Notes: a model not told the origin generated them from the letters alone. A stretch of 21,023 nucleotides of DNA from a virus (IMGVR_UViG_2778261176_000007:1-21023), one strand, 5' to 3'. Positions 1-20,023 are shown, numbered from the stretch's first letter. Program-made: numbers and translations.

Positions 1-516
1 ATGAAATTTAAAAAATGTCTTCTGCCTGTGGCAATGTTAGCGTCATTCACTCTGGCAGGATGCCAGTCAAATGCTGATGATCATGCCGCCGATGTTTATC
101 AAACCGATCAACTGAATACCAAACAAGAAACTAAAACCGTTAATATTATTTCCATTCTTCCCGCAAAAGTTGCCGTAGACAACTCCCAAAATAAACGGAA
201 CGCACAAGCCTTCGGCGCGCTTATTGGTGCAGTCGCTGGCGGTGTAATCGGCCACAACGTGGGGTCTGGCAGCAATTCCGGAACGACGGCAGGTGCAGTT
301 GGCGGCGGAGCTGTTGGCGCGGCAGCGGGTTCTATGGTGAATGATAAAACCTTAGTGGAAGGTGTTTCTTTAACGTATAAGGAAGGCACCAAAGTGTATA
401 CCTCCACCCAGGTGGGTAAAGAGTGCCAGTTTACGACAGGTTTAGCCGTTGTTATTACCACGACGTATAACGAAACGCGTATTCAGCCAAATACGAAATG
501 TCCTGAAAAGAGCTAA
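1..516 (+). CDS. yfgH: Outer-membrane lipoprotein with glycine-zipper region (host gene)
   Basis: ATG at position 1. The N-terminus MKFKKCLLPVAMLASFTLAGC is a lipoprotein signal peptide with an LAGC lipobox. A Gly/Ala-rich stretch (GALIGAVAGGVIGHNVGSG...GAVGGGAVGAAAG) follows. Balanced GC composition. The yfgH name is from memory of the E. coli protein, not a search. Confidence 0.8.
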   Translation: MKFKKCLLPVAMLASFTLAGCQSNADDHAADVYQTDQLNTKQETKTVNIISILPAKVAVDNSQNKRNAQAFGALIGAVAGGVIGHNVGSGSNSGTTAGAVGGGAVGAAAGSMVNDKTLVEGVSLTYKEGTKVYTSTQVGKECQFTTGLAVVITTTYNETRIQPNTKCPEKS

Positions 517-531
517 TGATCAGGAGGAGTC

Positions 532-1071
532 ATGAAGAAAGTTTTTCTTTGCGCCATCTTAGCCTCCTTAAGCTATCCGGCTATCGCCTCATCATTGCAG
601 GATCAACTCTCGGCTGTCGCAGAAGCGGAACAGCAAGGTAAAAATGAAGAGCAAAGGCAGCATGACGAATGGGTCGCGGAGCGCAACAGGGAAATCCAGC
701 AAGAGAAGCAACGTCGCGCAAACGCCCAGGCCGCGGCTAATAAAAGAGCGGCAACGGCAGCGGCGAATAAGAAAGCTCGTCAGGATAAACTGGACGCCGA
801 AGCCACTGCGGACAAAAAACGCGATCAAAGTTATGAAGATGAGCTACGCAGCTTAGAGATTCAGAAACAAAAACTGGCGCTGGCGAAAGAAGAAGCCCGC
901 GTCAAGCGCGAAAACGAATTTATCGATCAGGAACTGAAGCACAAAGCTGCGCAAACCGATGTGGTGCAATCTGAAGCTGACGCAAACAGAAATATGACTG
1001 AAGGCGGTCGCGATCTGATGAAAAGCGTGGGCAAAGCAGAAGAGAACAAATCGGACAGCTGGTTTAACTAA
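532..1071 (+). CDS. yfgI: Secreted coiled-coil, charged protein (host gene; YfgI-like)
   Basis: A strong SD (AGGAGG) sits 6 nt upstream of the ATG. N-terminal signal peptide MKKVFLCAILASLSYPAIASS. Lys/Glu/Ala/Gln-rich low-complexity body. Lies 15 nt downstream of the preceding gene. Name assigned from memory of E. coli yfgH-yfgI synteny. Confidence 0.75.
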   Translation: MKKVFLCAILASLSYPAIASSLQDQLSAVAEAEQQGKNEEQRQHDEWVAERNREIQQEKQRRANAQAAANKRAATAAANKKARQDKLDAEATADKKRDQSYEDELRSLEIQKQKLALAKEEARVKRENEFIDQELKHKAAQTDVVQSEADANRNMTEGGRDLMKSVGKAEENKSDSWFN

Positions 1072-3317: not shown

Positions 3318-6074
3318 TTAGCTACTTTCAAGCATTGCAAGACGTGATTCTATTTTTTCGATTCTTCTACGCAAATAAGCTGACTCAAGCCATAAACACT
3401 GGTCAGTACGGATACCCCACCTATTTCCAGCCTTGCAAACCAGAGTTCGCTCTTCTGTTTCGTATTCTTCTTCCATCTCAATTTCGACGCCATCCACAAC
3501 TTTAGTGATCATCCTTACCGCCATCACTGGCGCGTATTTATCATCCCATTCATCGTAACAGAGAAGGCCAAATCTGGTTCCATCAATCCCATGCGCGAGG
3601 AAAGTGTCTCTCACTTGTTGTGCTATAACACCAAAATGCCAGCGGGCACCATCTCCCTTTTCCCTGACGGCATCAAGCCAGCGAAAAGCTACAATCCTGA
3701 TATCTCCCCATGCATCCAGAATTGCATCACCTTCATAACCACGAGACATATACAAGCTGAGCTCACTTGTACTAATCGGTTCACTTTTTTCTCTACCATC
3801 TGATGTGTTTATCGAACCGTTCGCAGAATAAACCTGTGCCCATCTAAATGATGGTGCACCAAGAGATTTGCTGTTATCAATAATTGGTGAAAAATTACCT
3901 TTAATAGCAATATTTCCAGAGTCGCCGAATATATTAATAACTGCAGAGTCATCACCATGGTTTTTTACGCTTAAGTTTCTTGATGAAATATTTATATCTT
4001 TGTTATATCCACTAACATTAATCCATCTTTTACCATCAATGTGATACCCGTAAATATTTCCGTTTGATTGTTCGTCAGGTGACTCTCTAAGAACAATAGC
4101 ATCTACTCCAGACGACCATTGTATTTTTGTATCTGTAGGCCTCCAGTTCTTTATAATGAACGAACCATCAGTAAACTCCGTTTTTATTTGTCTATTGTCT
4201 ACAAATGCGTCTCTTGGTTTAAACTCACTTGTGTTAACGCTGCTCTGAAGATCAGAAGCAAAAAATCTAAGATTTCCTGTATAACCCTTAGTCTCGGTCA
4301 GGTTATACGCAATCATAATTCCATTTTCAAACTCAGATGATGTTATTTTAACATCACGGCAATCACCAAAAATGCAATTTCCTTTATCAAATGTTGTTTG
4401 AGCTTTGAATTTATCAAACCTTAAATTACGAACAGGGAAACCATCAACCTCTAATGCAAAGGATGCAGGAAGGCCAAAGTATTCTGATGGCTTACCTGAT
4501 GTATGATCAAGAGTAGTGGCTACTGTATTCTCAAAAACAGTCCCGCTAAAATTATTACCAATTGACGGAAACCTGATTACACTTATTGTACCTTGTATTT
4601 CAGGAGAAATACCAGATAGTGTGATGTTAGCTCCATCAAATGATGCATCTGAATACGTATATACTGATTCACTGCCAGCAATTTTAAACTGTTTAACTGA
4701 AGTTATTCTCATCGACTTTTTATGTTTAAATGTCACTGAGCTTTCAGTATTACTTACAAGATCAATCTGAGGGCTATTCCTTATCGCGATTCCTGACTGG
4801 ACATAAACGTTATTAAAGTGCGTTTTTTCAGGATTTCCCTTCATTGAAAGGCTACCGTCATTTTCTGTCAGTAGTAGTCCTTTTACCCTCCAATAGCCGA
4901 CAATCTGTACGTTATCAATAACTGAATCACAGCTATCGTATACATGCAACCCTATATCCCAGTTATCACCCAATGAATAAGAATCAGGGTTATTGTATCC
5001 TTCAATACCATTTTTACTTACCATTATTCTCAGATTGCGTAACTGTGATGCCCTGTTGATACTAACAGCTACGCTCATGGCTTTTGGTGTAGCAGGAGTA
5101 ACACCTACAGAATCTTCATTTGTAAACTCAGTGAACTTACAAGATATCCCTTCAACAATTTTAACTGGTCTTTCATTAGAGATGTTAAAAAAATATTTGT
5201 TTTTTTCTCCATCACCAGTAAATATAAGATGGGTTCCTTTACTCCAACTTTTTAATAATCTTTCAGGCGCTGGTCTATATGTATCCCAATAATCAATGCC
5301 ATCACCAATTAAAGACACTCCAGGAGGCACATCTATGTTCTTAGAAATCATCCATTTACCTGCAGGTATTCTAACGACACTTGCACCAGAATTTATCGCA
5401 TTAATTAACCATTCAGACGCATCAACTTCAAAATTTAATGCAGCATATCTTTGCTCAAACGGAACAAAATCAAGAGCGTTAACGTTATCCCGCATCTTAT
5501 CCTGGAACGTTCGGTATACTGCTCCAGAACCATACTGAATAAACCAACCAAAACCACCAACAACTCCGGCGATTGCAGCATCAACATAATTGCGCATTGA
5601 TCGATTATTTACAGCATCCTGCTCAAGTGATGGATCTGCAAGGTTAGAAATTTTGTTTTGCTTTGCATCGTAATATTTTGCAAGCAAAGATGGTTTCATC
5701 AATGCACGTCTGAACCATCCAAAACATTGCTGGATCAGCATCGTCAGGTAGTCAAATGCATCCTCATGAACTTCGGGGAAAAATTTTCCCTGATTGCGAA
5801 GATCAGTCTCCTGCACCACATCAAGCACACGCTCTATCGTGATTCTCCAGCCAGCAGCAAGCGGCGACGGAAGAACCACAGAACCGCCACTATAAGTGCC
5901 CGCCCCTGTTACCGTATAACCGGTATCCAGAACCAATTCTGTTACGTTCCCGTTCAGGTCAGACACCTGAACAACCAGGTCGGATTTTTTGAAAATACGG
6001 AAGGTATACGGAAATGATGTCGTAGTGCCGTTACCTGTGTATTCGTTGTGGTCAACTTCGGTTGAGACCGTCAT
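3318..6074 (-). CDS. Tailspike / tail fiber with T7 gp17-like N-terminal adaptor, central putative depolymerase domain and C-terminal intramolecular chaperone (peptidase S74-like)
   Basis: 918 aa. The N-terminal 120 aa align by eye with the T7 gp17 N-terminus (YTGNGTTTSFPYTFRIF versus YQLDGSNRDFNIPFEY). The central region is AT-rich (about 3800-5650). The last 160 aa or so (SDGREKSEPISTSELSL...WHFGVIAQQVRDTF...) resemble the autocleaving chaperone domain of endosialidase-type tailspikes. GGAGA SD upstream of the ATG at 6072-6074. Confidence 0.9.
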   Translation of the reverse strand: MTVSTEVDHNEYTGNGTTTSFPYTFRIFKKSDLVVQVSDLNGNVTELVLDTGYTVTGAGTYSGGSVVLPSPLAAGWRITIERVLDVVQETDLRNQGKFFPEVHEDAFDYLTMLIQQCFGWFRRALMKPSLLAKYYDAKQNKISNLADPSLEQDAVNNRSMRNYVDAAIAGVVGGFGWFIQYGSGAVYRTFQDKMRDNVNALDFVPFEQRYAALNFEVDASEWLINAINSGASVVRIPAGKWMISKNIDVPPGVSLIGDGIDYWDTYRPAPERLLKSWSKGTHLIFTGDGEKNKYFFNISNERPVKIVEGISCKFTEFTNEDSVGVTPATPKAMSVAVSINRASQLRNLRIMVSKNGIEGYNNPDSYSLGDNWDIGLHVYDSCDSVIDNVQIVGYWRVKGLLLTENDGSLSMKGNPEKTHFNNVYVQSGIAIRNSPQIDLVSNTESSVTFKHKKSMRITSVKQFKIAGSESVYTYSDASFDGANITLSGISPEIQGTISVIRFPSIGNNFSGTVFENTVATTLDHTSGKPSEYFGLPASFALEVDGFPVRNLRFDKFKAQTTFDKGNCIFGDCRDVKITSSEFENGIMIAYNLTETKGYTGNLRFFASDLQSSVNTSEFKPRDAFVDNRQIKTEFTDGSFIIKNWRPTDTKIQWSSGVDAIVLRESPDEQSNGNIYGYHIDGKRWINVSGYNKDINISSRNLSVKNHGDDSAVINIFGDSGNIAIKGNFSPIIDNSKSLGAPSFRWAQVYSANGSINTSDGREKSEPISTSELSLYMSRGYEGDAILDAWGDIRIVAFRWLDAVREKGDGARWHFGVIAQQVRDTFLAHGIDGTRFGLLCYDEWDDKYAPVMAVRMITKVVDGVEIEMEEEYETEERTLVCKAGNRWGIRTDQCLWLESAYLRRRIEKIESRLAMLESS

Positions 6075-6177
6075 GTTAAATCTCCAGATAGTCGCAGCAC
6101 CCGTTGCGCCGCATATCTGGTTATTCTATTACCTGAAAAACCACATATGGATAGAAAGACTGTAAATACGAATAGAT

Positions 6178-6194
6178 ATTACCTTTCGGGTAAT
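6178..6194. promoter_or_regulatory. 17-bp palindromic operator-like site ATTACC-TTTCG-GGTAAT (copy 1 of 5)
   Basis: Perfect 6-bp inverted arms with a 5-bp spacer. Located in the divergent region between the tailspike gene and the small Ant-C-like gene. Confidence 0.55.
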
Positions 6195-6232
6195 TTGCAA
6201 AACGTGCTGGATAGCAAACAAATTATTTGCTA

Positions 6233-6248
6233 CTGTATAAATATACAG
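6233..6248. promoter_or_regulatory. LexA (SOS) box CTGT-ATAAATAT-ACAG
   Basis: taCTGTATAAATATACAGtt differs from the LexA consensus CTGTATATATATACAG at one central position. It sits 22 nt upstream of the ATG at 6270 and contains a TATAAAT -10-like hexamer. Confidence 0.6.
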
Positions 6249-6269
6249 TTATTGCATGGAGAAGATAAG

Positions 6270-6527
6270 ATGCAGCAGTATCACTATCCACTGGAAGACG
6301 GATTTACCGAAAGGATTCACACGCCGGGAGGCGTCAGATCACTAGTGGAGGGATCGCACTTGATGAAATTACTCCGGGATCTCGATAAGGATGGATTTAA
6401 TGTCGATGGCCCACTTGCCGAACTGACTGCACTGATTAACTACGTCACCAGCTCACAGATGTCTATGCGGGATCTGCAAACACATCTCGACTATTGTGCC
6501 GAACAATTACGAAAACAAACCAGATAA
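6270..6527 (+). CDS. Small stand-alone protein homologous to the C-terminal domain of the two Bro-N antirepressors (candidate SOS-controlled antirepressor-like factor)
   Basis: 85 aa from the internal ATG (the track ORF starts at 6147 but would cover the operator palindrome and LexA box). GGAG SD 9 nt upstream. Alignable by eye to the Ant C-termini (LAELTALINYVTSSQMSMRDLQTHLDY versus AAELTTMFCYIVGVSKCLRDIQTHAEY). Confidence 0.5.
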   Translation: MQQYHYPLEDGFTERIHTPGGVRSLVEGSHLMKLLRDLDKDGFNVDGPLAELTALINYVTSSQMSMRDLQTHLDYCAEQLRKQTR

Positions 6528-6556
6528 GGTTTGCAATTACCAAGTGGAGTGCTTAT

Positions 6557-6575
6557 ATTTACCTTTGCGGTAAAT
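6557..6575. promoter_or_regulatory. Palindromic operator-like site ATTTACC-TTTGC-GGTAAAT (copy 2 of 5), at the start of the ant1 leader
   Basis: Perfect 7-bp arms. About 45 nt upstream of the conserved structured leader element. Confidence 0.55.
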
Positions 6576-6600
6576 TTACATCGCACTCCTCTTGTGCCAT

Positions 6601-6685
6601 AGTAATCGGGCACTGGCAAAATCCAGTGCCGGGATTGGCGTCCCGGATTACTAAAAGGCGCATTCACCGCGCAAGCGGTTTTTTT
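6601..6685 (+). ncRNA. Structured leader RNA element upstream of ant1 (c4-like antisense-RNA candidate): closing stem, two hairpins, and a hairpin plus U7 terminator
   Basis: Stem AGTAATC (6601-6607) pairs with GATTACT (6646-6652). Hairpin A is GGCACTGG-caaaat-CCAGTGCC (6609-6630). Hairpin B is CCGGGA-ttggcg-TCCCGG (6629-6646). Terminator-like ACCGC-gcaa-GCGGT followed by T7 (6666-6685). The stems are conserved in the inverted ant2 copy while the loops differ (compensatory pattern). Confidence 0.4.
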
Positions 6686-6842
6686 ATGCGTATAGCACGG
6701 CCACATTCGTATTATGGTGGGCTGTGTGGGGGCACCGAAAGGTGCGCCGGGTCCTTTTAGCCGGTTACGCCAACCCTGCACAGCTCACCACCAACCGATT
6801 GGCGTCGGTAGTGGTGATTAACCAGACTAAAAGGTAACCACT

Positions 6843-7538
6843 ATGACAGCTACAAAAAGCACGTCCATTTTTTCTTTCGAATCCCAAGCCGATATACGAG
6901 TAATCGTCATTAATGGTGAGCCATGGTTTATCGCTTCAGATGTTTGTCGGGCTATAGGCATAGCAAACCATCGAGATGCTGTTCGAAAACTTGATGATGA
7001 TGAGAAGGGCGTCGCTTCAACCGACACCCCTGGCGGTGAGCAAGAATCGATCATCATCTCCGAGTCAGGCCTCTACACACTGATCCTCCGCTGCCGCGAC
7101 GCAGTGACACCAGGCACTATCCCCTACCGCTTTCGTAAATGGGTTACAGGTGAGGTTCTTCCTCAGATCCGCCGCACCGGAAGCTACATTAAAAACTCGC
7201 TCCCGCAGGAAGAACGCATAAAGATGGTTGCCGACCAGGTAGCCAACGCCACGGCGTCAGCAGTAATGCAGGCGATGAAGATAGAGAACAAAACCTACAG
7301 CGCCCCGCTGAAGCCCGGCTACCGCAGTTTGATTCACTCGCCGTCTGGTGTTCTCGGCCTGACGGAGAACTCACTGCTGATGAATCTGCTGAACCAGTTA
7401 CAGGAAGACGGGCACGACGTATCGGGCGCGGCGGCGGAACTGACCACCATGTTCTGCTACATCGTCGGTGTGAGTAAATGCCTGCGTGATATCCAGACCC
7501 ACGCGGAATACATCAACGACAAGGCAGGGGTCTTCTGA
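6843..7538 (+). CDS. Antirepressor-like protein with Bro-N N-terminal domain (ant1)
   Basis: 231 aa. N-terminus IFSFESQADIRVIVINGEPWFIASDVCRAIGI...ESGLYTLILR is a Bro-N-type motif. AAAGGT SD before the ATG. The C-terminal half is nearly identical (about 95 percent nucleotide identity) to the inverted paralog at 8652-9344. Confidence 0.85.
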   Translation: MTATKSTSIFSFESQADIRVIVINGEPWFIASDVCRAIGIANHRDAVRKLDDDEKGVASTDTPGGEQESIIISESGLYTLILRCRDAVTPGTIPYRFRKWVTGEVLPQIRRTGSYIKNSLPQEERIKMVADQVANATASAVMQAMKIENKTYSAPLKPGYRSLIHSPSGVLGLTENSLLMNLLNQLQEDGHDVSGAAAELTTMFCYIVGVSKCLRDIQTHAEYINDKAGVF

Positions 7539-7547
7539 CAGAACGGC

Positions 7548-7570
7548 GGCACAGGGATGTGCCTTTAAAT
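7548..7570 (+). terminator. Putative terminator of ant1 (hairpin GGCACA-ggga-TGTGCC followed by TTTAAAT)
   Basis: 6-bp stem about 10 nt after the ant1 stop. The T-tract is interrupted, so this is weakly supported. Confidence 0.35.
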
Positions 7571-7604
7571 AATTCTGTACAGATTGCAGGTGAATAGCGT
7601 ACTA

Positions 7605-7619
7605 TTACCCCAAAGGTAA
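7605..7619. promoter_or_regulatory. Palindromic operator-like site TTACC-CCAAA-GGTAA (copy 3 of 5), upstream of the AT-rich two-gene cassette
   Basis: Perfect 5-bp arms with a 5-bp spacer, about 120 nt upstream of the ATG at 7737. Confidence 0.5.
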
Positions 7620-7736
7620 GAAAGTTGATTTGTAACATTTTAGTTTGTAGTTACCGTGATGGTTTTGCTGCAGAAAGTTAACTAGTCAAAATCACACCGT
7701 ATGTAAGTCACGTCTGTTCCCGTATGGGAGGATGAT

Positions 7737-7955
7737 ATGTTTAAATTTGATATGCAACTCAACCAAAACTATGCCTCTTTTTACCATCCAGAAACTGGTA
7801 AAGCTGTTTTCGTTGACTCTTTCGATAATGAAGAATTTGATATCAGAATTGGGACCCTACGCCAAAGTAAGCATGTTGCTACTGTACGTGCATCCAATGA
7901 TGATGAATTAAATCAAAAAATAAGTGAGGCGACCTCCCGTTATCTATGTCTATAA
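7737..7955 (+). CDS. Hypothetical protein, 72 aa (first gene of AT-rich moron cassette)
   Basis: Strong SD GGGAGG 7 nt upstream of the ATG. AT-rich codon usage unlike the flanking genes. Its stop overlaps the start of the next ORF (ATG at 7946, TAA at 7953-7955). No recognisable domain. Confidence 0.55.
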   Translation: MFKFDMQLNQNYASFYHPETGKAVFVDSFDNEEFDIRIGTLRQSKHVATVRASNDDELNQKISEATSRYLCL

Positions 7956-8323
7956 CAGAACAACAACTCATTGATCTTGAGGATGAGATTAACGAGATCT
8001 TGCAAGAAGATGCGGCAAGAATTCACTTTTCATTTCACGCAGCATATGAACGCCTGAACGACGAGAGGAACAAACCGCCAATTACTCTTGCTGAGCTTGA
8101 AGATGTGTTTAAATCGTTTATATCTGCACATCTGCAGACTGTTTTGGATTTTGCTGAAGGTACAACTTTCACCATAAAGTGCAACAAAAGCGCCCTTCAT
8201 TTTCCTTGCGCCATTGTACACGAAAGAGAGTTTGGGAAAACGTGGGTTATCCAAAACGTCATTACAGCCATGAGGAAAGTGGGATTCAAGTCTAAAGATT
8301 CTATTATCCTCGAAGTTAATTAA
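7946..8323 (+). CDS. Hypothetical protein, 125 aa (second gene of AT-rich moron cassette)
   Basis: Translationally coupled to the 72-aa ORF. Acidic N-terminal half. Followed immediately by an intrinsic terminator. No recognisable domain. Confidence 0.6.
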   Translation: MSITEQQLIDLEDEINEILQEDAARIHFSFHAAYERLNDERNKPPITLAELEDVFKSFISAHLQTVLDFAEGTTFTIKCNKSALHFPCAIVHEREFGKTWVIQNVITAMRKVGFKSKDSIILEVN

Positions 8324-8344
8324 GCCCGCACTGAGGGCTTTTTT
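8323..8344 (+). terminator. Rho-independent terminator of the two-gene cassette
   Basis: Stem AGCCC / GGGCT with loop GCACTGA, followed by TTTTTT (8339-8344). Directly after the stop codon at 8321-8323. Confidence 0.7.
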
Positions 8345-8416
8345 ATGGACGAAACAAAAGTCAGTGCTACACTCATTGACGCCACATTGAGGTGGCTTAT
8401 AGATGGAAATTTCACA

Positions 8417-8578
8417 ATGAAAAAAGCATTTGCTGCACTGTTCGTTTTGTTGTCTCTGGTAGCTTCAACTCAGGCCTTTGCCGGTCGTTGTCAGCACGAC
8501 AGCGATACTGCCGCTGACGGCTCCCGCTGCGGTGGGCGTTCTGCGGACTCCCGCCCGGGCGGCGGTGGCATTCGTTAA
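8417..8578 (+). CDS. Small secreted Cys/Gly-rich peptide (about 53 aa), hypothetical
   Basis: Signal peptide MKKAFAALFVLLSLVASTQAFA then GRCQHDSDTAADGSRCGGRSADSRPGGGGIR. Weak SD. The upstream in-frame ATG at 8345 lies inside the preceding terminator T-tract, so 8417 is the more plausible start. Confidence 0.3.
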   Translation: MKKAFAALFVLLSLVASTQAFAGRCQHDSDTAADGSRCGGRSADSRPGGGGIR

Positions 8579-8600
8579 AAACAAGGCCGCGAAAGCGGCC
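8577..8600 (-). terminator. Rho-independent terminator of ant2 (minus strand)
   Basis: Hairpin GGCCGC-gaaa-GCGGCC (8585-8600) followed on the minus strand by TTGTTTTT. About 50 nt downstream of the ant2 stop. Confidence 0.5.
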
Positions 8601-8651
8601 TGTGACATGTCACGCTAGTTTCGTTTTGCACGTCCCTGTGCCGACGTTCTG

Positions 8652-9344
8652 TCAGAAGAACCCTGCCTTGTCGTTGATGTATTCCGCGTGCGTCTGGATA
8701 TCACGCAGGCATTTGCTCACACCGACGATGTAGCAGAACATGGTGGTCAGCTCCGCCGCCGCACCCGATACGTCGTGCCCGTCTTCCTGTAACTGGTTCA
8801 GCAGATTCATCAGCAGTGAGTTCTCCGTCAGGCCGAGAACACCAGACGGAGAATGAATCAGGCTGCGGTAGCCGGGCTTCAGCGGGGAGCTGTAGGTTTT
8901 GTTCTCTATCTTCATTGCCTGCATCACTGCTGATGCTGTGGCGTTGGCTACCTGGTCGGCAACCATCTTTATGCGTTCTTCCTGAGGGAGCGAGTTTTTA
9001 ATGTAACTTCCGGTGCGGCGGATCTGAGGAAGAACCTCACCTGTAACCCATTCAAGAAATCTGAATGCTCTCGTTCCCTCAGTCATTGCCTCTTTGCAAC
9101 GCAGAATAAGGATGTAGAGACCTGATTCTGAAACGATGGATAGTTCTTGTATTCCACCAGGGGTCTGTATTGAATACAGCCCCTTTTTGTTCCAGCCTTT
9201 TTTATCAAGTTTTCTCGCTTGTGTAACATCAATATTCAAAGCATTGCACACATCTTTGGTGACAAACCAAGGTTCTCCGTCAATCATGAACATACGGATC
9301 TGGCAGGATGACTCAAAGGAAAAGATGGAAGGTTTGGTATTCAT
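8652..9344 (-). CDS. Antirepressor-like protein with Bro-N N-terminal domain (ant2), inverted paralog of ant1
   Basis: 230 aa from the ATG at 9342-9344 (the track ORF starts 15 codons upstream at a TTG). AAAGGTGA SD. The Bro-N domain has diverged from ant1 while the C-terminal 130 aa differ at only 2 residues. Confidence 0.85.
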   Translation of the reverse strand: MNTKPSIFSFESSCQIRMFMIDGEPWFVTKDVCNALNIDVTQARKLDKKGWNKKGLYSIQTPGGIQELSIVSESGLYILILRCKEAMTEGTRAFRFLEWVTGEVLPQIRRTGSYIKNSLPQEERIKMVADQVANATASAVMQAMKIENKTYSSPLKPGYRSLIHSPSGVLGLTENSLLMNLLNQLQEDGHDVSGAAAELTTMFCYIVGVSKCLRDIQTHAEYINDKAGFF

Positions 9345-9498
9345 AGCGATCACCTTTGTAGTTAGGTTAATCACCACCGCTGAGACCAATCAGATGGTGG
9401 TGAACTGTGCAGAGTTGGTCTTACCGGCTACAAAGGAACCCGGCGCACCTTTCGGTGCCCCCACACAGCCCACCATAGAATAGGTGCGCTTTACACAT

Positions 9499-9584
9499 AA
9501 AAAAACCGCTTATGCGGCATATGTGCCTCTGTAGTAATCCGGGAGACCAATCCCGGCACTGGATTTTGCCAGTGCCTGATTACT
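9499..9584 (-). ncRNA. Structured leader RNA element upstream of ant2 (twin of 6601-6685), c4-like antisense-RNA candidate
   Basis: Same closing stem and two hairpins as the ant1 leader, with loop B changed from ttggcg to ttggtc. Terminator-like CCGC-ataa-GCGG followed by U7 on the minus strand (9499-9517). Confidence 0.4.
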
Positions 9585-9611
9585 ATGGCACAAGAGGAGT
9601 GCGTTGTAAAT

Positions 9612-9626
9612 TTACCTCAAAGGTAA
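9612..9626. promoter_or_regulatory. Palindromic operator-like site TTACC-TCAAA-GGTAA (copy 4 of 5), at the start of the ant2 leader
   Basis: Perfect 5-bp arms. Equivalent position to copy 2 in the inverted arm. Lies in the divergent region between ant2 and the 9774 gene. Confidence 0.5.
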
Positions 9627-9773
9627 TAATAGACGCAGGTGAATATCAAAATCAACCACATTTGGTTAAGGTGTGTAAAAGAGCCACCAGCGAGAAATTG
9701 TACCGCGATGTAAAATAACGAGAATCTGCTGGCTTACAACCAGCGATGTTTCAAATTTGTCACTACTATCAAC

Positions 9774-10172
9774 GTGCCATTCCACGGCGTAGAACTTTAT
9801 GTTGTCAATCACAACGGCGAACCGTACACCCCAATGAAACCTATCGTTGAGGGAATGGGGCTAGACTGGAAATCTCAACATAAGAAGATTTCTCAACGCT
9901 TCTCGAAGGGTATGGTGGAAATCACCATACCTTCTGCCGGTGGGGTGCAAGCCATGATTTGTATGGCTTTACGAAAATTGGCAGCTTGGTTGAACAGCAT
10001 CAGCCCTAACAAAGTCCGCCCTGAAATCCGCGATAAGGTAATCCAGTATCAGGAAGAGTGTGATGATGTGCTCTATGAGTACTGGACTAAAGGCCATGTG
10101 GTTAACCCGCGCAAAGCTAAAAAGGTGTTGCCGGGTAAAATCACTACTGAGCAACAGGAGGTATACACTTAA
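9774..10172 (+). CDS. Phage antirepressor-like protein (P22 AR N-terminal-like domain), hypothetical
   Basis: 132 aa. The motif LRKLAAWLNSISPNKVRPEIRDKVIQYQEECDDVLYEYW resembles antirepressor N-terminal domains as I recall them. The first in-frame start is a GTG with no clear SD, so the start is uncertain (an internal ATG lies 20 codons in). Confidence 0.5.
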   Translation: MPFHGVELYVVNHNGEPYTPMKPIVEGMGLDWKSQHKKISQRFSKGMVEITIPSAGGVQAMICMALRKLAAWLNSISPNKVRPEIRDKVIQYQEECDDVLYEYWTKGHVVNPRKAKKVLPGKITTEQQEVYT

Positions 10173-10196
10173 CACTTGATCACATTAGCACAAAAT

Positions 10197-10213
10197 ATTA
10201 CCTTTAAGGTAAT
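10197..10213. promoter_or_regulatory. Palindromic operator-like site ATTACC-TTTAA-GGTAAT (copy 5 of 5), immediately upstream of the membrane-anchored moron
   Basis: Perfect 6-bp arms. Ends 20 nt before the ATG at 10233, so it overlaps the expected promoter/RBS region. Confidence 0.55.
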
Positions 10214-10232
10214 GTTATTGTGAGGAAAAGCA

Positions 10233-10760
10233 ATGGAAGTTTTCTTAATCATCGTCGGCATCGTGATTATTAATTTTGTTTTTTTATTTATTGCAAAAAA
10301 ACAAAAAAGTAACGATATGCATGTTTCTACAACTGATGATCTTACCTTTGTAGAGCATGCACTGAATGTATCAGGATATAAACTCACTCCATACGGAGCT
10401 GGTGTATCACTCATGTCTTTAAGTAACGGTTTTTCAAAAGAAGAAACATTTTCACATATAGCTTTGATGGCTCTTTCTCAACACGCCAAAGTCGCAGGTA
10501 GTGACGCAATTGAGCTTAGTAAAGTTAGCATTCGTGCGATGTCGATAGCTGAAAACTTAACTAAATTATTCAGGAAAGGTCTTATTCGATCAGAAATATA
10601 TAAAAATGATTTGAATGCTATCATGGCTGTCAGCACAATTAATGAAAACCAAGAGGATTGGATTTCCATAGTTCTGGAAAGCAATAGCACATCTAACAAG
10701 GATACTATTGCTTTGCCGATAAGTGCAGAAGCTTCTTTAGAAGCCATAAACAGCCATTGA
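10233..10760 (+). CDS. Membrane-anchored hypothetical protein (moron; candidate superinfection-exclusion or abortive-infection factor)
   Basis: 175 aa. N-terminal TM helix (VFLIIVGIVIINFVFLFIA) followed by KKQK, then a soluble domain. GAGG SD 7 nt upstream. Strongly AT-rich coding sequence. Convergent with the structural operon. Confidence 0.65.
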   Translation: MEVFLIIVGIVIINFVFLFIAKKQKSNDMHVSTTDDLTFVEHALNVSGYKLTPYGAGVSLMSLSNGFSKEETFSHIALMALSQHAKVAGSDAIELSKVSIRAMSIAENLTKLFRKGLIRSEIYKNDLNAIMAVSTINENQEDWISIVLESNSTSNKDTIALPISAEASLEAINSH

Positions 10761-10781
10761 AAGAACTCCAATAAATATTGA

Positions 10782-17552: not shown

Positions 17553-20023
17553 CAGAATCCCCCAACAGTAAGGCGAGGAATAACGGCAAGAACAGACAGC
17601 GGCAACGGGTCAAGCTGACGGATTCTTACACGTCCGTTTTTGCCCCAGTTACTGTCCAGTTTTACTTCTACTTTTCCGGTAGCGTCATCAACAGGATCAT
17701 CGTAGAACTCGAATTCACGCTGTGGATATTCGTACCATTTACCGCCGGGCGTAGTCGCCCAGATGCCGCGACTGGCATTCACAACCAGAGTAACGGACGG
17801 GATCACCTGTTTTTTGTCCAGCAGCGTTTCCTGTCCGTTAATGTTGATATCCAGTGTTTCGAATTCAGCAGTTATTGGCAGGCCGATGTGCACTACAGCC
17901 CCCGGAGATTCCAGCGTGACGGCACCTCCGGAAACCACTTTCTGTGGTTCCACGTTCGCATCAGAGAGGATGTTTACGGTCTGGCCTTCAAGATGAGACA
18001 AGCCGCCAAATGTCCGGCGCGCCATCTGCCAGTTCGTGGTGGCCACATTCCTGAGGGATGGCGGGACGTTCCTGTTAGCACGAACCACTACAGCGGTATT
18101 GCTGGTTACAGAAATAATGTCGCAACGTAATTCTTTTGACACTTCATCGCCAGTATCAGGATCAGTTCCGGCATAAGGGAACTGTAGTTGCGCGCCGACA
18201 TCACTACTGGTGAAGTACGCACCACCAGAAATACTGATTGTATATTCCGCGCGGTAATCCCATTCACCAGAACCACCAGTGATGGTCATCGTTCTGTCAG
18301 ACGTATTTCTTCCATCATAGCTAAGGCCAGAATCAACAAAGAAAGCATCTTCATCGCTGGTAAATAAACGGCTGGACAGTCGCTCTATGTATCTCACTGT
18401 TTGCCCGTTAACGGTTCGGTTAACGACGAAATACACCGCATCTTCATTGCCTTCGCTGATACTGCATGTGCTTTCATATTTCCCGGTACTGGATTGTGGT
18501 GCCCATGCAAAAACCTGCTGATCACGCAAATAGGTCATCACCAGCAATTTACCGTCATCACGAATGCAGAAGGCGCTGGAGTAAGGGACAATCGAGAAGC
18601 ACCAGTCAACAATGCTGTGCTTCTGAAAAAGATGATTGGCAAGGATGGTCAGGTCGTTCCCCTGATAGCCGTCAACATCGAATGAGTAGGCCAGATCACG
18701 GACAACACTGCCTTTCTCCTGGACGAACAGAGCAATATTCGCCACGGCAATTGGTGGGACATTGCTCGAGCCATTTGATCCCTGAGAGCTGAATGCAAAT
18801 GATGATGGGGTAAGCACTTTGTTCTGGTCGCCAGTGATGACGTACTCACCTCCGGAAGTCAGCGCCACCAGCGAACCAACATCAATCAGGTGACGGATCT
18901 CATTAACCTGACGCCCGGCATAGGTGTAGATAATTCTGTCGTCATCCTGCGTAGGATTGCTTTTGCCAAAATCCTTATAATCCCCGGTACGGCTGGCCCA
19001 GATAGTCTGAGGGAACGCAGTCGATGCGGCGAAGTAAAGGCGTTGTTGATAATAAACAACAGTGCCAGGATAACCGTTAATACTGTTCCAGGCATATTTA
19101 GCCCATTTATAGCTGGCATTATCCTCGCCAACTACCTGCGAAGGGATATAGGAAATCACCTCAGCAGTTGCAGTAGTGCCATTTACAGCAGTTATACGGG
19201 CAATGCCAAAACCACTGTGCAGATACTCCCACTCAATGCCAGTATCATCATCACCGGATCCGCCCCAGCCATCCCATGATGTGCCTTCTGTATGCGAAGG
19301 GCGCAAAGTGCCTGTTTTGCCTGCTGTAACGGCGCGATAGTAGTTACTGTCTGCACGGCGAATATCGCCAATCGACGTACTCTTACTGGTTTCCCATACC
19401 GGCACAGAATCCACTGCAGGCTGTTCCAGATAGAACAATTTGCCTACCTGCTCCGCGCCAAAAATTGAGGCGCTTGCCGTTAACGTAATTGTCCCGGTGC
19501 TGGCGCTGGCATAAACCGTCACTGACTCGTCAATATTGATATCTTCAAATGGCCCGTTCTTCGTTACCACATCAACCAGTTGCCAGTTGTCATGAGCATA
19601 TCTGCGCAGCTCTTTCGGCGGGTATGCCGGGTGAACCAGCGTAAGCACGTCGGCGCTTTGCGTGAATTTAATTCGGAACAGATCGGCTTCAGTATATGGC
19701 GTGGCAATTTCATAAATAACATTGCTGCTGTTCAGCACCAACGCACCATCTTTGATAACGCGCATGTACTGGTGTCCGAACTCCAGAGCATAGGTCTGAA
19801 CCGTCGAGAACTGGAACGGGATCAGGCGGCATTTCCGATTTGGGTATTTGGCGGCACCGACAAAACGCGTACCAGGTCGATTCTCAACGCCGCCATACTG
19901 CCGCACGATAAAGTTATCGCACTTGCGCAATGCCACCTGGTACTTCGCCATGTCGATACGACCGTACAACGACGGTCCAATCTCACCACCGGCAAAGCTG
20001 GGCTGTATCCAACTGATAGCCAT
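17552..20023 (-). CDS. Tail tubular protein B / nozzle (T7 gp12-like, 823 aa)
   Basis: The N-terminus MAISWIQPSFAGGEIGPSLYGRIDMAKYQ parallels T7 gp12 MALISQSIKNLKGGISQQPDILRYPDQ (from memory). Size is close to gp12 (794 aa). Coupled to its neighbours. Confidence 0.7.
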   Translation of the reverse strand: MAISWIQPSFAGGEIGPSLYGRIDMAKYQVALRKCDNFIVRQYGGVENRPGTRFVGAAKYPNRKCRLIPFQFSTVQTYALEFGHQYMRVIKDGALVLNSSNVIYEIATPYTEADLFRIKFTQSADVLTLVHPAYPPKELRRYAHDNWQLVDVVTKNGPFEDINIDESVTVYASASTGTITLTASASIFGAEQVGKLFYLEQPAVDSVPVWETSKSTSIGDIRRADSNYYRAVTAGKTGTLRPSHTEGTSWDGWGGSGDDDTGIEWEYLHSGFGIARITAVNGTTATAEVISYIPSQVVGEDNASYKWAKYAWNSINGYPGTVVYYQQRLYFAASTAFPQTIWASRTGDYKDFGKSNPTQDDDRIIYTYAGRQVNEIRHLIDVGSLVALTSGGEYVITGDQNKVLTPSSFAFSSQGSNGSSNVPPIAVANIALFVQEKGSVVRDLAYSFDVDGYQGNDLTILANHLFQKHSIVDWCFSIVPYSSAFCIRDDGKLLVMTYLRDQQVFAWAPQSSTGKYESTCSISEGNEDAVYFVVNRTVNGQTVRYIERLSSRLFTSDEDAFFVDSGLSYDGRNTSDRTMTITGGSGEWDYRAEYTISISGGAYFTSSDVGAQLQFPYAGTDPDTGDEVSKELRCDIISVTSNTAVVVRANRNVPPSLRNVATTNWQMARRTFGGLSHLEGQTVNILSDANVEPQKVVSGGAVTLESPGAVVHIGLPITAEFETLDININGQETLLDKKQVIPSVTLVVNASRGIWATTPGGKWYEYPQREFEFYDDPVDDATGKVEVKLDSNWGKNGRVRIRQLDPLPLSVLAVIPRLTVGGF

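Follow-up and report, generated by a model that had tools for sequence, protein, structure and literature searches.

The stretch of DNA examined here, IMGVR_UViG_2778261176_000007:1-21023 (21,023 bp, hereafter the window), represents an epsilon15/phiV10-type podovirus prophage of the genus Uetakevirus, and carries five short palindromes that are considered below as probable operators of the lysogeny repressor Rep. The closest complete E. coli genome, TUM9803, covers 84% of the window at 97.6% identity and holds the corresponding prophage between guaA and yfgI/yfgH; window positions 1-1071 are therefore host DNA, and homologues of yfgH and yfgI are found there. The end of the prophage, attR, has to fall somewhere from about 1071 to 1290; in relatives, the site of integration is the 3' end of guaA. 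The minus strand encodes the lysis genes, the tailspike (3318-6074) and, from 10782 onward, the virion genes. Between the tailspike and virion genes lies an accessory island (6075-10781), which together with its flanks shares 95-98% identity with TL-2011b, phiV10 and related phages.

Within the window, the palindrome TTACC-N5-GGTAA occurs exactly five times, at 6179-6193, 6559-6573, 7605-7619, 9612-9626 and 10198-10212 (O1 to O5). Dinucleotide-preserving shuffles gave a mean of 0.01 sites and none of 100 shuffles reached five, which confirms the non-random occurrence claimed in a preliminary description of this DNA. That description gave the element as a 17-bp palindrome, ATTACC-N5-GGTAAT, present five times. 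The full form is found only in O1 (6178-6194) and O5 (10197-10213); the element common to all five is a 15-bp core, and the outermost bases differ in O2 (TTTACC..GGTAAA), O3 (ATTACC..GGTAAG) and O4 (TTTACC..GGTAAT). All five palindromes are intergenic and each stands at the 5' end of a transcription unit, in agreement with the earlier statement that every site lies upstream of a gene or leader.

The position of the palindromes relative to predicted promoters is precise. O1 (ATTACCTTTCGGGTAAT, 6178..6194) lies between the divergent promoters of the tailspike gene and of a small antirepressor gene, ant; it is orthologous to an annotated epsilon15 repressor site (19895-19911) and is kept in six phages from three host genera. 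O2 (TTTACCTTTGCGGTAAA, 6558..6574) lies between the two promoters of a first, plus-strand ant cassette: its first base is the last of the -10 of promoter P1 (6531..6559, +, TTGCAA-17-TATATT), and it ends 1 bp before the -35 of promoter P2 (6575..6603, +, TTTACA-17-(TG)CATAGT). O4 (TTTACCTCAAAGGTAAT, 9611..9627) is the mirror copy of O2 for a second ant cassette on the minus strand, bracketed by that cassette's own P1 (9655-9626, TTGATT-18-TATTAT) and P2 (9610-9582, TTTACA-17-CATAGT), which together span 9582..9655. At the head of a two-gene cargo cassette stands O3 (ATTACCCCAAAGGTAAG, 7604..7620), preceded by the weak, sigma-70-like promoter P3 (7576..7605, +, TGTACA-18-TACTAT), whose -10 ends on the first T of the operator; P3 matches at 4/6 and 4/6 positions and falls below the threshold of the general promoter scan. 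O5 (ATTACCTTTAAGGTAAT, 10197..10213), a perfect 17-bp palindrome, lies over the promoter start region of a gene for a 175-aa membrane protein and begins 2 bp past the -10 of promoter P5 (10169..10196, +, TTAACA-16-CAAAAT); the 77-bp block of promoter and operator is found again in TL-2011b in a different context. In all, O2, O3 and O4 begin on the last base of a -10 hexamer and O5 begins two bases past one.

Weaker second full sites 48-62 bp from the island operators were looked for, and only half-sites and a two-mismatch site at 7651 were found, none of them convincing; the half-sites include 6129-6133, within the tailspike promoter, and 6537-6541, within the P1 -35 region. A one-mismatch site at 2950 was treated as chance because it lies inside the first gene of the lysis operon (a putative holin) and is not conserved in phiV10. 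The palindrome does not match the LexA (SOS) box CTGT-N8-ACAG, and an SOS core sits separately at 6233-6248.

From 47 unique sites in six genomes the consensus is A-TTACC-T-T-W-A-A-GGTAA-T. The arms are invariant and the spacer varies freely around a symmetric T-T-W-A-A pattern, with 78% A+T and A or T at the central base in 92 of 94 symmetrised counts; a spacer beginning with TTT, proposed in the preliminary description as a signal of orientation, is therefore not one. The bases flanking the core form TAwwA-T. Over 59 unique sites, 81% directly adjoin a hexamer with at least 4/6 of the bases of TATAAT whose last position is the first T of TTACC, as against 29.5% in a matched null, and the operator is thus built into the promoter -10. 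Operator pairs recur at 62-63 bp centre to centre, or about six helical turns, and proximal and distal operators at the 62-bp spacing bracket PL-type promoters. In phiV10, the PL layout consists of a distal operator, 19 nt, TTGACA-17-TAATTA and a proximal operator placed on the last base of the -10. Such a layout would suit one Rep tetramer holding both sites.

The motif is found across the genomes of complete relatives, with about 14-16 sites each, of which 8-11 are exact. phiV10 and TL-2011b each carry 14 sites with at most one mismatch (about 0.7 expected in each), epsilon15 has 11 exact sites, SPC32H has 10, and the 41.6-kb TUM9803 prophage has 11 exact sites and 16 with at most one mismatch. 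In these five genomes nearly every promoter-bearing gap is occupied. The gap between rep and the cro-like gene holds two to three sites, and another two to three directly follow rep, where the leftward early operon begins; a pair precedes the replication-distal early genes, and terS, the head genes, the tailspike gene, the lysis genes and int are preceded by sites as well. Both sides of rep are occupied, with 2-3 sites per side, in phiV10, TL-2011b, epsilon15, SPC32H, TUM9803 and Klebsiella BUCT711. Among 80 IMG/VR loci with a phiV10-type Rep, all 80 have an exact site 70 bp upstream of rep and 76 have both members of the 62-bp pair downstream of it, one of the four exceptions ending just after rep. 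These loci were gathered by a Rep-alignment search, carry only Rep identical to that of phiV10, and inform conservation, not covariation. Host DNA is free of the motif as sampled, with no exact site in 100 kb of E. coli chromosome or in the host flanks of the prophage.

These distributions revise the earlier picture of the island in part. The confinement of the sites to 4 kb holds within the window, because its remainder consists of host DNA and long promoter-less structural and lysis operons, but not in whole relatives, where the motif spans the genome. Likewise, the wider scan proposed earlier found that the motif is not equally frequent in host DNA, and at the same time that it is not specific to the island. 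The island is consequently not a single self-contained regulon: its sites belong to a set found at OL-, OR-, replication-, terminase-, head- and integrase-proximal promoters. The operator had also been taken as one not recognised. It is indeed not of lambda, P22 or P1 type, but the GenBank record of epsilon15 (NC_004775.2 / AY150271) contains seven 'protein_bind / repressor / lysogeny' features, all of which are ATTACC-N5-GGTAAT. Full-text literature searches for the motif returned primer matches only.

Ahead of the integrase gene, at a distance of about 57 bp, each of the five complete relatives has a conserved variant operator with one mismatch, ATTACC-N5-GGTATA (position 26870 in phiV10, 26882 in epsilon15, and 135, 26960 and 4221 in the genomes L002, L004 and L005, respectively). 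This suggests weak control of int by Rep.

Several lines of evidence connect the motif to Rep. Compared with the solved SPC32H Rep (PDB 5D50_A), the Rep of TUM9803 gives a match at E=3.5e-42. The Rep proteins of phiV10 and SPC32H are 42% identical overall and have in common the helix-turn-helix region at the N-terminus, with its presumed recognition helix NLVNRW, which fits a common half-site. Further, when relatives were gathered by tblastn with the Rep DNA-binding domain, distant homologues of this domain (36-40% identity) were accompanied by altered palindromes in both gaps around the repressor gene: Psychrobacter pOW20-A has ATACC-N5-GGTAT, with a changed outer half-site base, and Pseudomonas PseuP_224 has ATTACC-N4-GGTAAT, with a 4-bp spacer. 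No clear operator pattern was found around the Rep-domain relative in Moraxella Mcat9. The Psychrobacter and Pseudomonas variants form a small natural series for the study of specificity in this repressor family. The cargo behaves differently from the repressor in this respect. The isrK-C4-ant cassette also occurs in Stx2a_F723, VT2-Sakai, SfV, APSE-1 and IdasGreatGrand, which are phages with other repressors, and there no such palindrome is found, even when two mismatches are allowed. Tyrion, a Uetakevirus of Enterobacter, has both O1 and O2. By sequence comparison, then, the motif is one that tracks Rep, not the cargo genes. SPC32H Rep is described as binding palindromic sites as a tetramer, which tetrameric Ant disassembles (PMC9638917), and the 62-bp operator pairs that bracket a promoter fit the tetrameric binding described there.

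We therefore read the five palindromes as predicted operators of Rep, the SPC32H/epsilon15-type lysogeny repressor of the XRE family, with a probability of roughly 85%. Most likely the motif is the Rep operator predicted earlier for epsilon15-like phages, with O2-O5 as new examples of it in acquired cassettes. A common DNA-binding regulator for all five sites, as proposed in the preliminary description, is supported, and among the regulators it considered the prophage repressor is the best candidate. Four points weigh against this reading or limit it. The Rep type of this prophage is assigned from near-identical relatives because rep lies outside the 21-kb window, and the closest full prophage, TUM9803, does encode Rep. 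O1 overlaps neither of its neighbouring core promoters, which leaves the mode of repression there unclear. Rep on O2 and O4, whose centres fall at about -44 relative to the native promoter P2, could be neutral, repressing or activating. Finally, a Cro-like protein may occupy the same sites.

The last of these points leads to the likeliest of the rivals, namely that another backbone regulator is the main ligand, either the Cro-like protein encoded beside rep or the regulator encoded before terS (phiV10 gp55 / epsilon15 gp49). The occurrence of the motif at the late promoters of terS, the head genes, the tailspike gene and the lysis genes is in keeping with this view, as is the fact that the Cro-like 76-aa protein adjoins rep and matches phrog_35 'transcriptional repressor'; the sharing of operators by Cro and CI in lambda offers a precedent. 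Yet sites are gathered on either side of rep, distant phages with a diverged Rep DNA-binding domain have an altered palindrome, and the annotators of epsilon15 gave the sites to the repressor; if Cro used the sites too, this would come on top of Rep binding and not replace it. We consider this rival unlikely. A regulator encoded by the island or by the host, with the island as its private regulon, accounts for the location of all five window sites within the island, but epsilon15 and SPC32H have 10-11 exact sites and lack the island except for the small ant, no DNA-binding family was found among the island cargo genes, and the 100-kb host sample is devoid of sites. This makes a regulator of either kind very improbable, and an island-encoded one, among the earlier suggestions, is excluded.

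The palindromes might alternatively serve primarily as recombination junctions for cassette swapping, with protein binding being secondary. Breakpoints in the homology between islands fall at the sites more often than expected (16% within 5 bp of operators vs 2.9% for random positions, the endpoints not being independent), several alignments end exactly on the operator edges 6559, 7619 and 9626, and phages of this type encode RecE/RecT-type recombinases. Against this, the motif also occurs in non-mosaic core promoters and around rep, it is joined to -10 hexamers, a site-specific recombinase is not encoded in the island, and breakpoints are in any case expected where a conserved element adjoins variable cargo. 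A primary role in recombination is accordingly given only a slim chance, somewhat below that of another backbone regulator and above that of a private regulon. Least credible of all is an origin as RNA hairpins, terminators or chance. Small hairpins could form (-3.3 to -8.8 kcal/mol), but their stems are mostly weak, A/T-rich and not followed by a U-tract, and the spacer is free to vary between invariant arms; chance is excluded by the shuffles.

If Rep is the regulator, the two TTACC half-sites, whose centres are 10 bp apart, would be occupied by paired Rep DNA-binding domains, and Rep on O2-O5 would block RNA polymerase at the transcription start, since O2, O3 and O4 begin on the final base of the -10 and O5 two bases after it. 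The transcription units under these operators are described below.

At O1, footprinting across six phages identified four conserved blocks, which are O1 itself, TGCTGGATAG, an SOS box and, on the minus strand, CCATATGTGGTTTTTCAGGTAATAGAAT. The TGCTGGATAG block and the SOS box together would form the ant promoter (TGGATA at 6208-6213, 17 nt, TACTGT at 6231-6236), and the minus-strand CCATATGTGGTTTTTCAGGTAATAGAAT block the tailspike promoter, which would place the centre of O1 at about -57 with respect to the start of ant transcription and about -70 with respect to that of the tailspike. The tailspike promoter (6123..6151, -) consists of a CCATATGTGGTTT box, then CAGGTAA, then the -10 TAGAAT (6128-6123). 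The LexA box, TACTGTATAAATATACAGTT (6231..6250), is perfect, overlaps the putative ant promoter 20 bp upstream of the small ant gene, and is invariant in the six phages, which include E. coli, Salmonella and Enterobacter relatives. The small antirepressor Ant (85 aa; 6270..6527, +) is a close homologue of the SPC32H Ant (PDB 5D50_E, E=1.4e-46; phrog_450). In this lineage neither a serotype-conversion gene nor an operator was found between the tailspike and lysis genes, and for this reason O1 may govern a tailspike-lysis operon, although transcription might end at a hairpin that follows the tailspike gene.

The CCATATGTGGTTT box lies at 6138-6149 (-) in the window, with a weaker copy at 9653-9664 (-), and recurs in phiV10 (3308, 20921, 24739, 33131, 35116) and epsilon15 (2988, 19940, 24751, 35953). 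Its copies are found at the promoters of the tailspike, lysis and head genes and at some early promoters, 30-45 bp away from an operator and with a -10 following 7-10 nt downstream. Because the box seems to occupy the place of a -35, this arrangement suggests that these promoters may be activator-dependent.

The two ant cassettes share a leader with isrK and C4 antisense RNA and encode Bro-N proteins. In the first, the leader (6610..6795, +) comprises isrK at 6610-6685 and C4 at 6710-6795, and the predicted start of P2 at about 6610 coincides with the isrK 5' end; a 231-aa protein follows (6843..7538, +). The second cassette (8652..9575, -) contains isrK at 9499-9575, C4 at 9393-9480 and a 230-aa protein (8652-9344). 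The two isrK and C4 leaders are inverted copies of each other (6610-6795 +, 9393-9575 -), with Rfam C4 scores of 79.2 and 78.6 bits (gathering score 45). The C4 loops are complementary to 6799-6805 and 6827-6834 at the ant ribosome-binding site, with decoy copies in isrK at 6635-6641 and 6651-6658, and the targets and decoys match the a1/b1 and a2/b2 layout of phage P1. No icd is present, as the only 47 nt between C4 and the ant ATG contain no open reading frame. Promoter P2 aligns with the single TTGACG-17-CTATAT-type promoter of the Stx, APSE-1 and IdasGreatGrand cassettes and is the native promoter of the cassette; promoter P1 is absent from those cassettes, is specific to the Uetakevirus backbone and is predicted to be occluded at O2. 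A module resembling immI of phage P1 has thus been extended at its front by about 45 bp of backbone sequence, comprising a promoter and an operator.

Both Bro-N proteins combine a Bro-N domain (residues ~17-107) with a complete SPC32H-Ant-like domain (~150-226), the latter 43% identical to the small Ant and matching PDB 5D50_E at E=1e-13. The island thus encodes three Ant-domain proteins under two different controls. In the relative ZX5, overexpression of the Bro-N antirepressor lowers lysogeny and rep transcription and favours lytic growth (PMC9782041).

These elements can be arranged into a circuit, for which homologies and promoter geometry are observed and from which we infer the regulatory behaviour. 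In the lysogen, all island cassettes would be off together with the rest of the phage, except for one 53-aa gene that has a promoter and no operator. DNA damage would release LexA and allow the small Ant to be made; Ant would then remove Rep from the DNA, a step known from SPC32H, and with Rep lost all operators would open, O1-O5 included. At both ant cassettes the upstream promoter P1 would fire, and transcription would outrun the C4 antisense lock. The two Bro-N proteins, each with an Ant-like domain of its own, would accumulate and reinforce the inactivation of Rep. Such a scheme suggests a positive-feedback loop between Rep and Ant similar to that of immI in phage P1.

Beyond the antirepressor genes, O3 heads a cargo cassette (7737..8340, +) of two genes encoding 72-aa and 125-aa proteins (phrog_14630 and phrog_14518, function unknown), with a terminator at 8322-8340. 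In relatives the slot after O3 is taken by a different pair of a small and a larger gene each time, for example a YafO-type toxin pair. The layout of this slot resembles that of toxin-antitoxin or defence cassettes; PADLOC defence models had no match among the cargo genes. The 175-aa protein under O5 (10233..10760, +) belongs to phrog_21690 (function unknown). The 53-aa signal-peptide protein mentioned above (8417-8578; phrog_14503, 'moron, membrane associated') has the promoter TTGACG-16-TATAGA (8376-8403), is without a Rep operator, and is enclosed by terminators at 8322-8340 (+) and 8584-8601 (-). Its gene is conserved in other islands, likewise without an operator, and is likely the sole island gene expressed in the lysogen. 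A truncated P22-type antirepressor at 9774-10172 (+) consists of the P22_AR_N domain only, has a GTG start and no operator of its own, is 95.5% identical to the CUS-3 ant, and is a RefSeq pseudogene in relatives.

Each cassette of the window's island has an operator at its boundary. Other cargo, including YafO-type pairs, DUF2335, ORF6N and a 242-aa gene, is carried by five more islands (A_5, MS8345, CE0007a, MS 196-1 and AH20E044), which have 4-6 exact intergenic sites each, almost all of their transcription units being headed by an operator. The homology to TL-2011b and TUM9803 stops exactly at 7619, an edge of O3, and other breakpoints fall at the 8322-8340 terminator, so the cassette can be defined as promoter-operator, genes and terminator. 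The breakpoints at operator edges may reflect exchange at a short shared sequence in phages with RecE/RecT-type recombinases, a hypothesis to which a conserved element beside variable cargo is an equal alternative.

A more far-reaching proposal is that the Rep operator with its fused -10 acts as a universal adaptor at which foreign cassettes are captured and exchanged, that the island is an array specific to induction instead of a set of morons expressed in the lysogen, and that the Bro-N-Ant fusions act as a latch. We regard this as tentative and rather doubtful, with the odds clearly against it. Should it be true, isrK-C4-ant modules of lambdoid or P1-like origin, toxin-antitoxin-like pairs and membrane proteins would arrive pre-wired to the resident repressor, and a Bro-N-Ant latch under Rep and C4 would make SOS induction irreversible; Rep at -44 of P2 could even sustain C4 and IsrK synthesis in the lysogen.

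Comparison with known systems places the island within this phage family. epsilon15 and SPC32H (PDB 5D50, 5D4Z) share the identical 17-bp ATTACC-N5-GGTAAT at matching genome positions, the Uetakevirus type, the Rep family and the small LexA-controlled Ant (E=1e-46). They differ in that nothing but the small ant separates the tailspike from the structural genes, whereas in the window a pair of isrK-C4-Bro-N-Ant modules, the two-gene cargo and the gene for a membrane protein are gated by four more operators; the instances O2-O5 are not annotated in the phage records examined. Lambda OL and OR are likewise palindromic, bound by a helix-turn-helix protein, promoter-overlapping, and present as multiple cooperative sites flanking the repressor gene. 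However, lambda operators are confined to the immunity region and the late genes are controlled by antitermination, whereas in Uetakevirus the late, lysis, integrase and accessory promoters each have their own operator. Mycobacteriophage L5 is a further case of dispersed control, with many gp71 'stoperators' in short intergenic gaps genome-wide, beyond the immunity region. The L5 sites are asymmetric 13-mers that depend on orientation and act on elongating polymerase, whereas the many scattered sites described here are symmetric, stand at promoters and are fused to the -10.

Phage P1 offers a parallel to the ant cassettes, although the C1 operator is an asymmetric 17-mer and the one described here is palindromic. 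The two systems have in common one primary repressor with operators dispersed over the genome, and an antirepressor operon with a C4 antisense RNA, duplicated targets and an extra, repressor-controlled upstream promoter; as far as geometry goes, this last likeness is borne out by O2 and O4, each of which begins on the last base of the -10 of promoter P1. In phage P1, C1 represses c4-icd-ant, and full silencing needs C4 (PMC8198154). The systems differ in that the repressor here is the unrelated, XRE-type Rep and not C1, C4 targets the ant ribosome-binding site directly in the absence of icd, and the primary antirepressor is a separate gene under LexA. Relative to these precedents the additions made here are modest, and consist of cassettes bounded by operators, a Rep-controlled promoter before a P1-like C4 module and an Ant-like domain on Bro-N proteins.

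On this assignment the five sites come under a regulator already known and characterised. The fusion of the operator to the -10 provides a simple sequence rule by which transcription units and cassette boundaries can be found in Uetakevirus prophages, and the Ant-like domain on the Bro-N proteins offers a testable reason for the presence of three antirepressor genes under two locks. In E. coli prophages of this common type the accessory genes, apart from the operator-less 53-aa gene, probably stay off in the lysogen and come on only upon induction, which changes how 'moron' islands in these prophages should be read.

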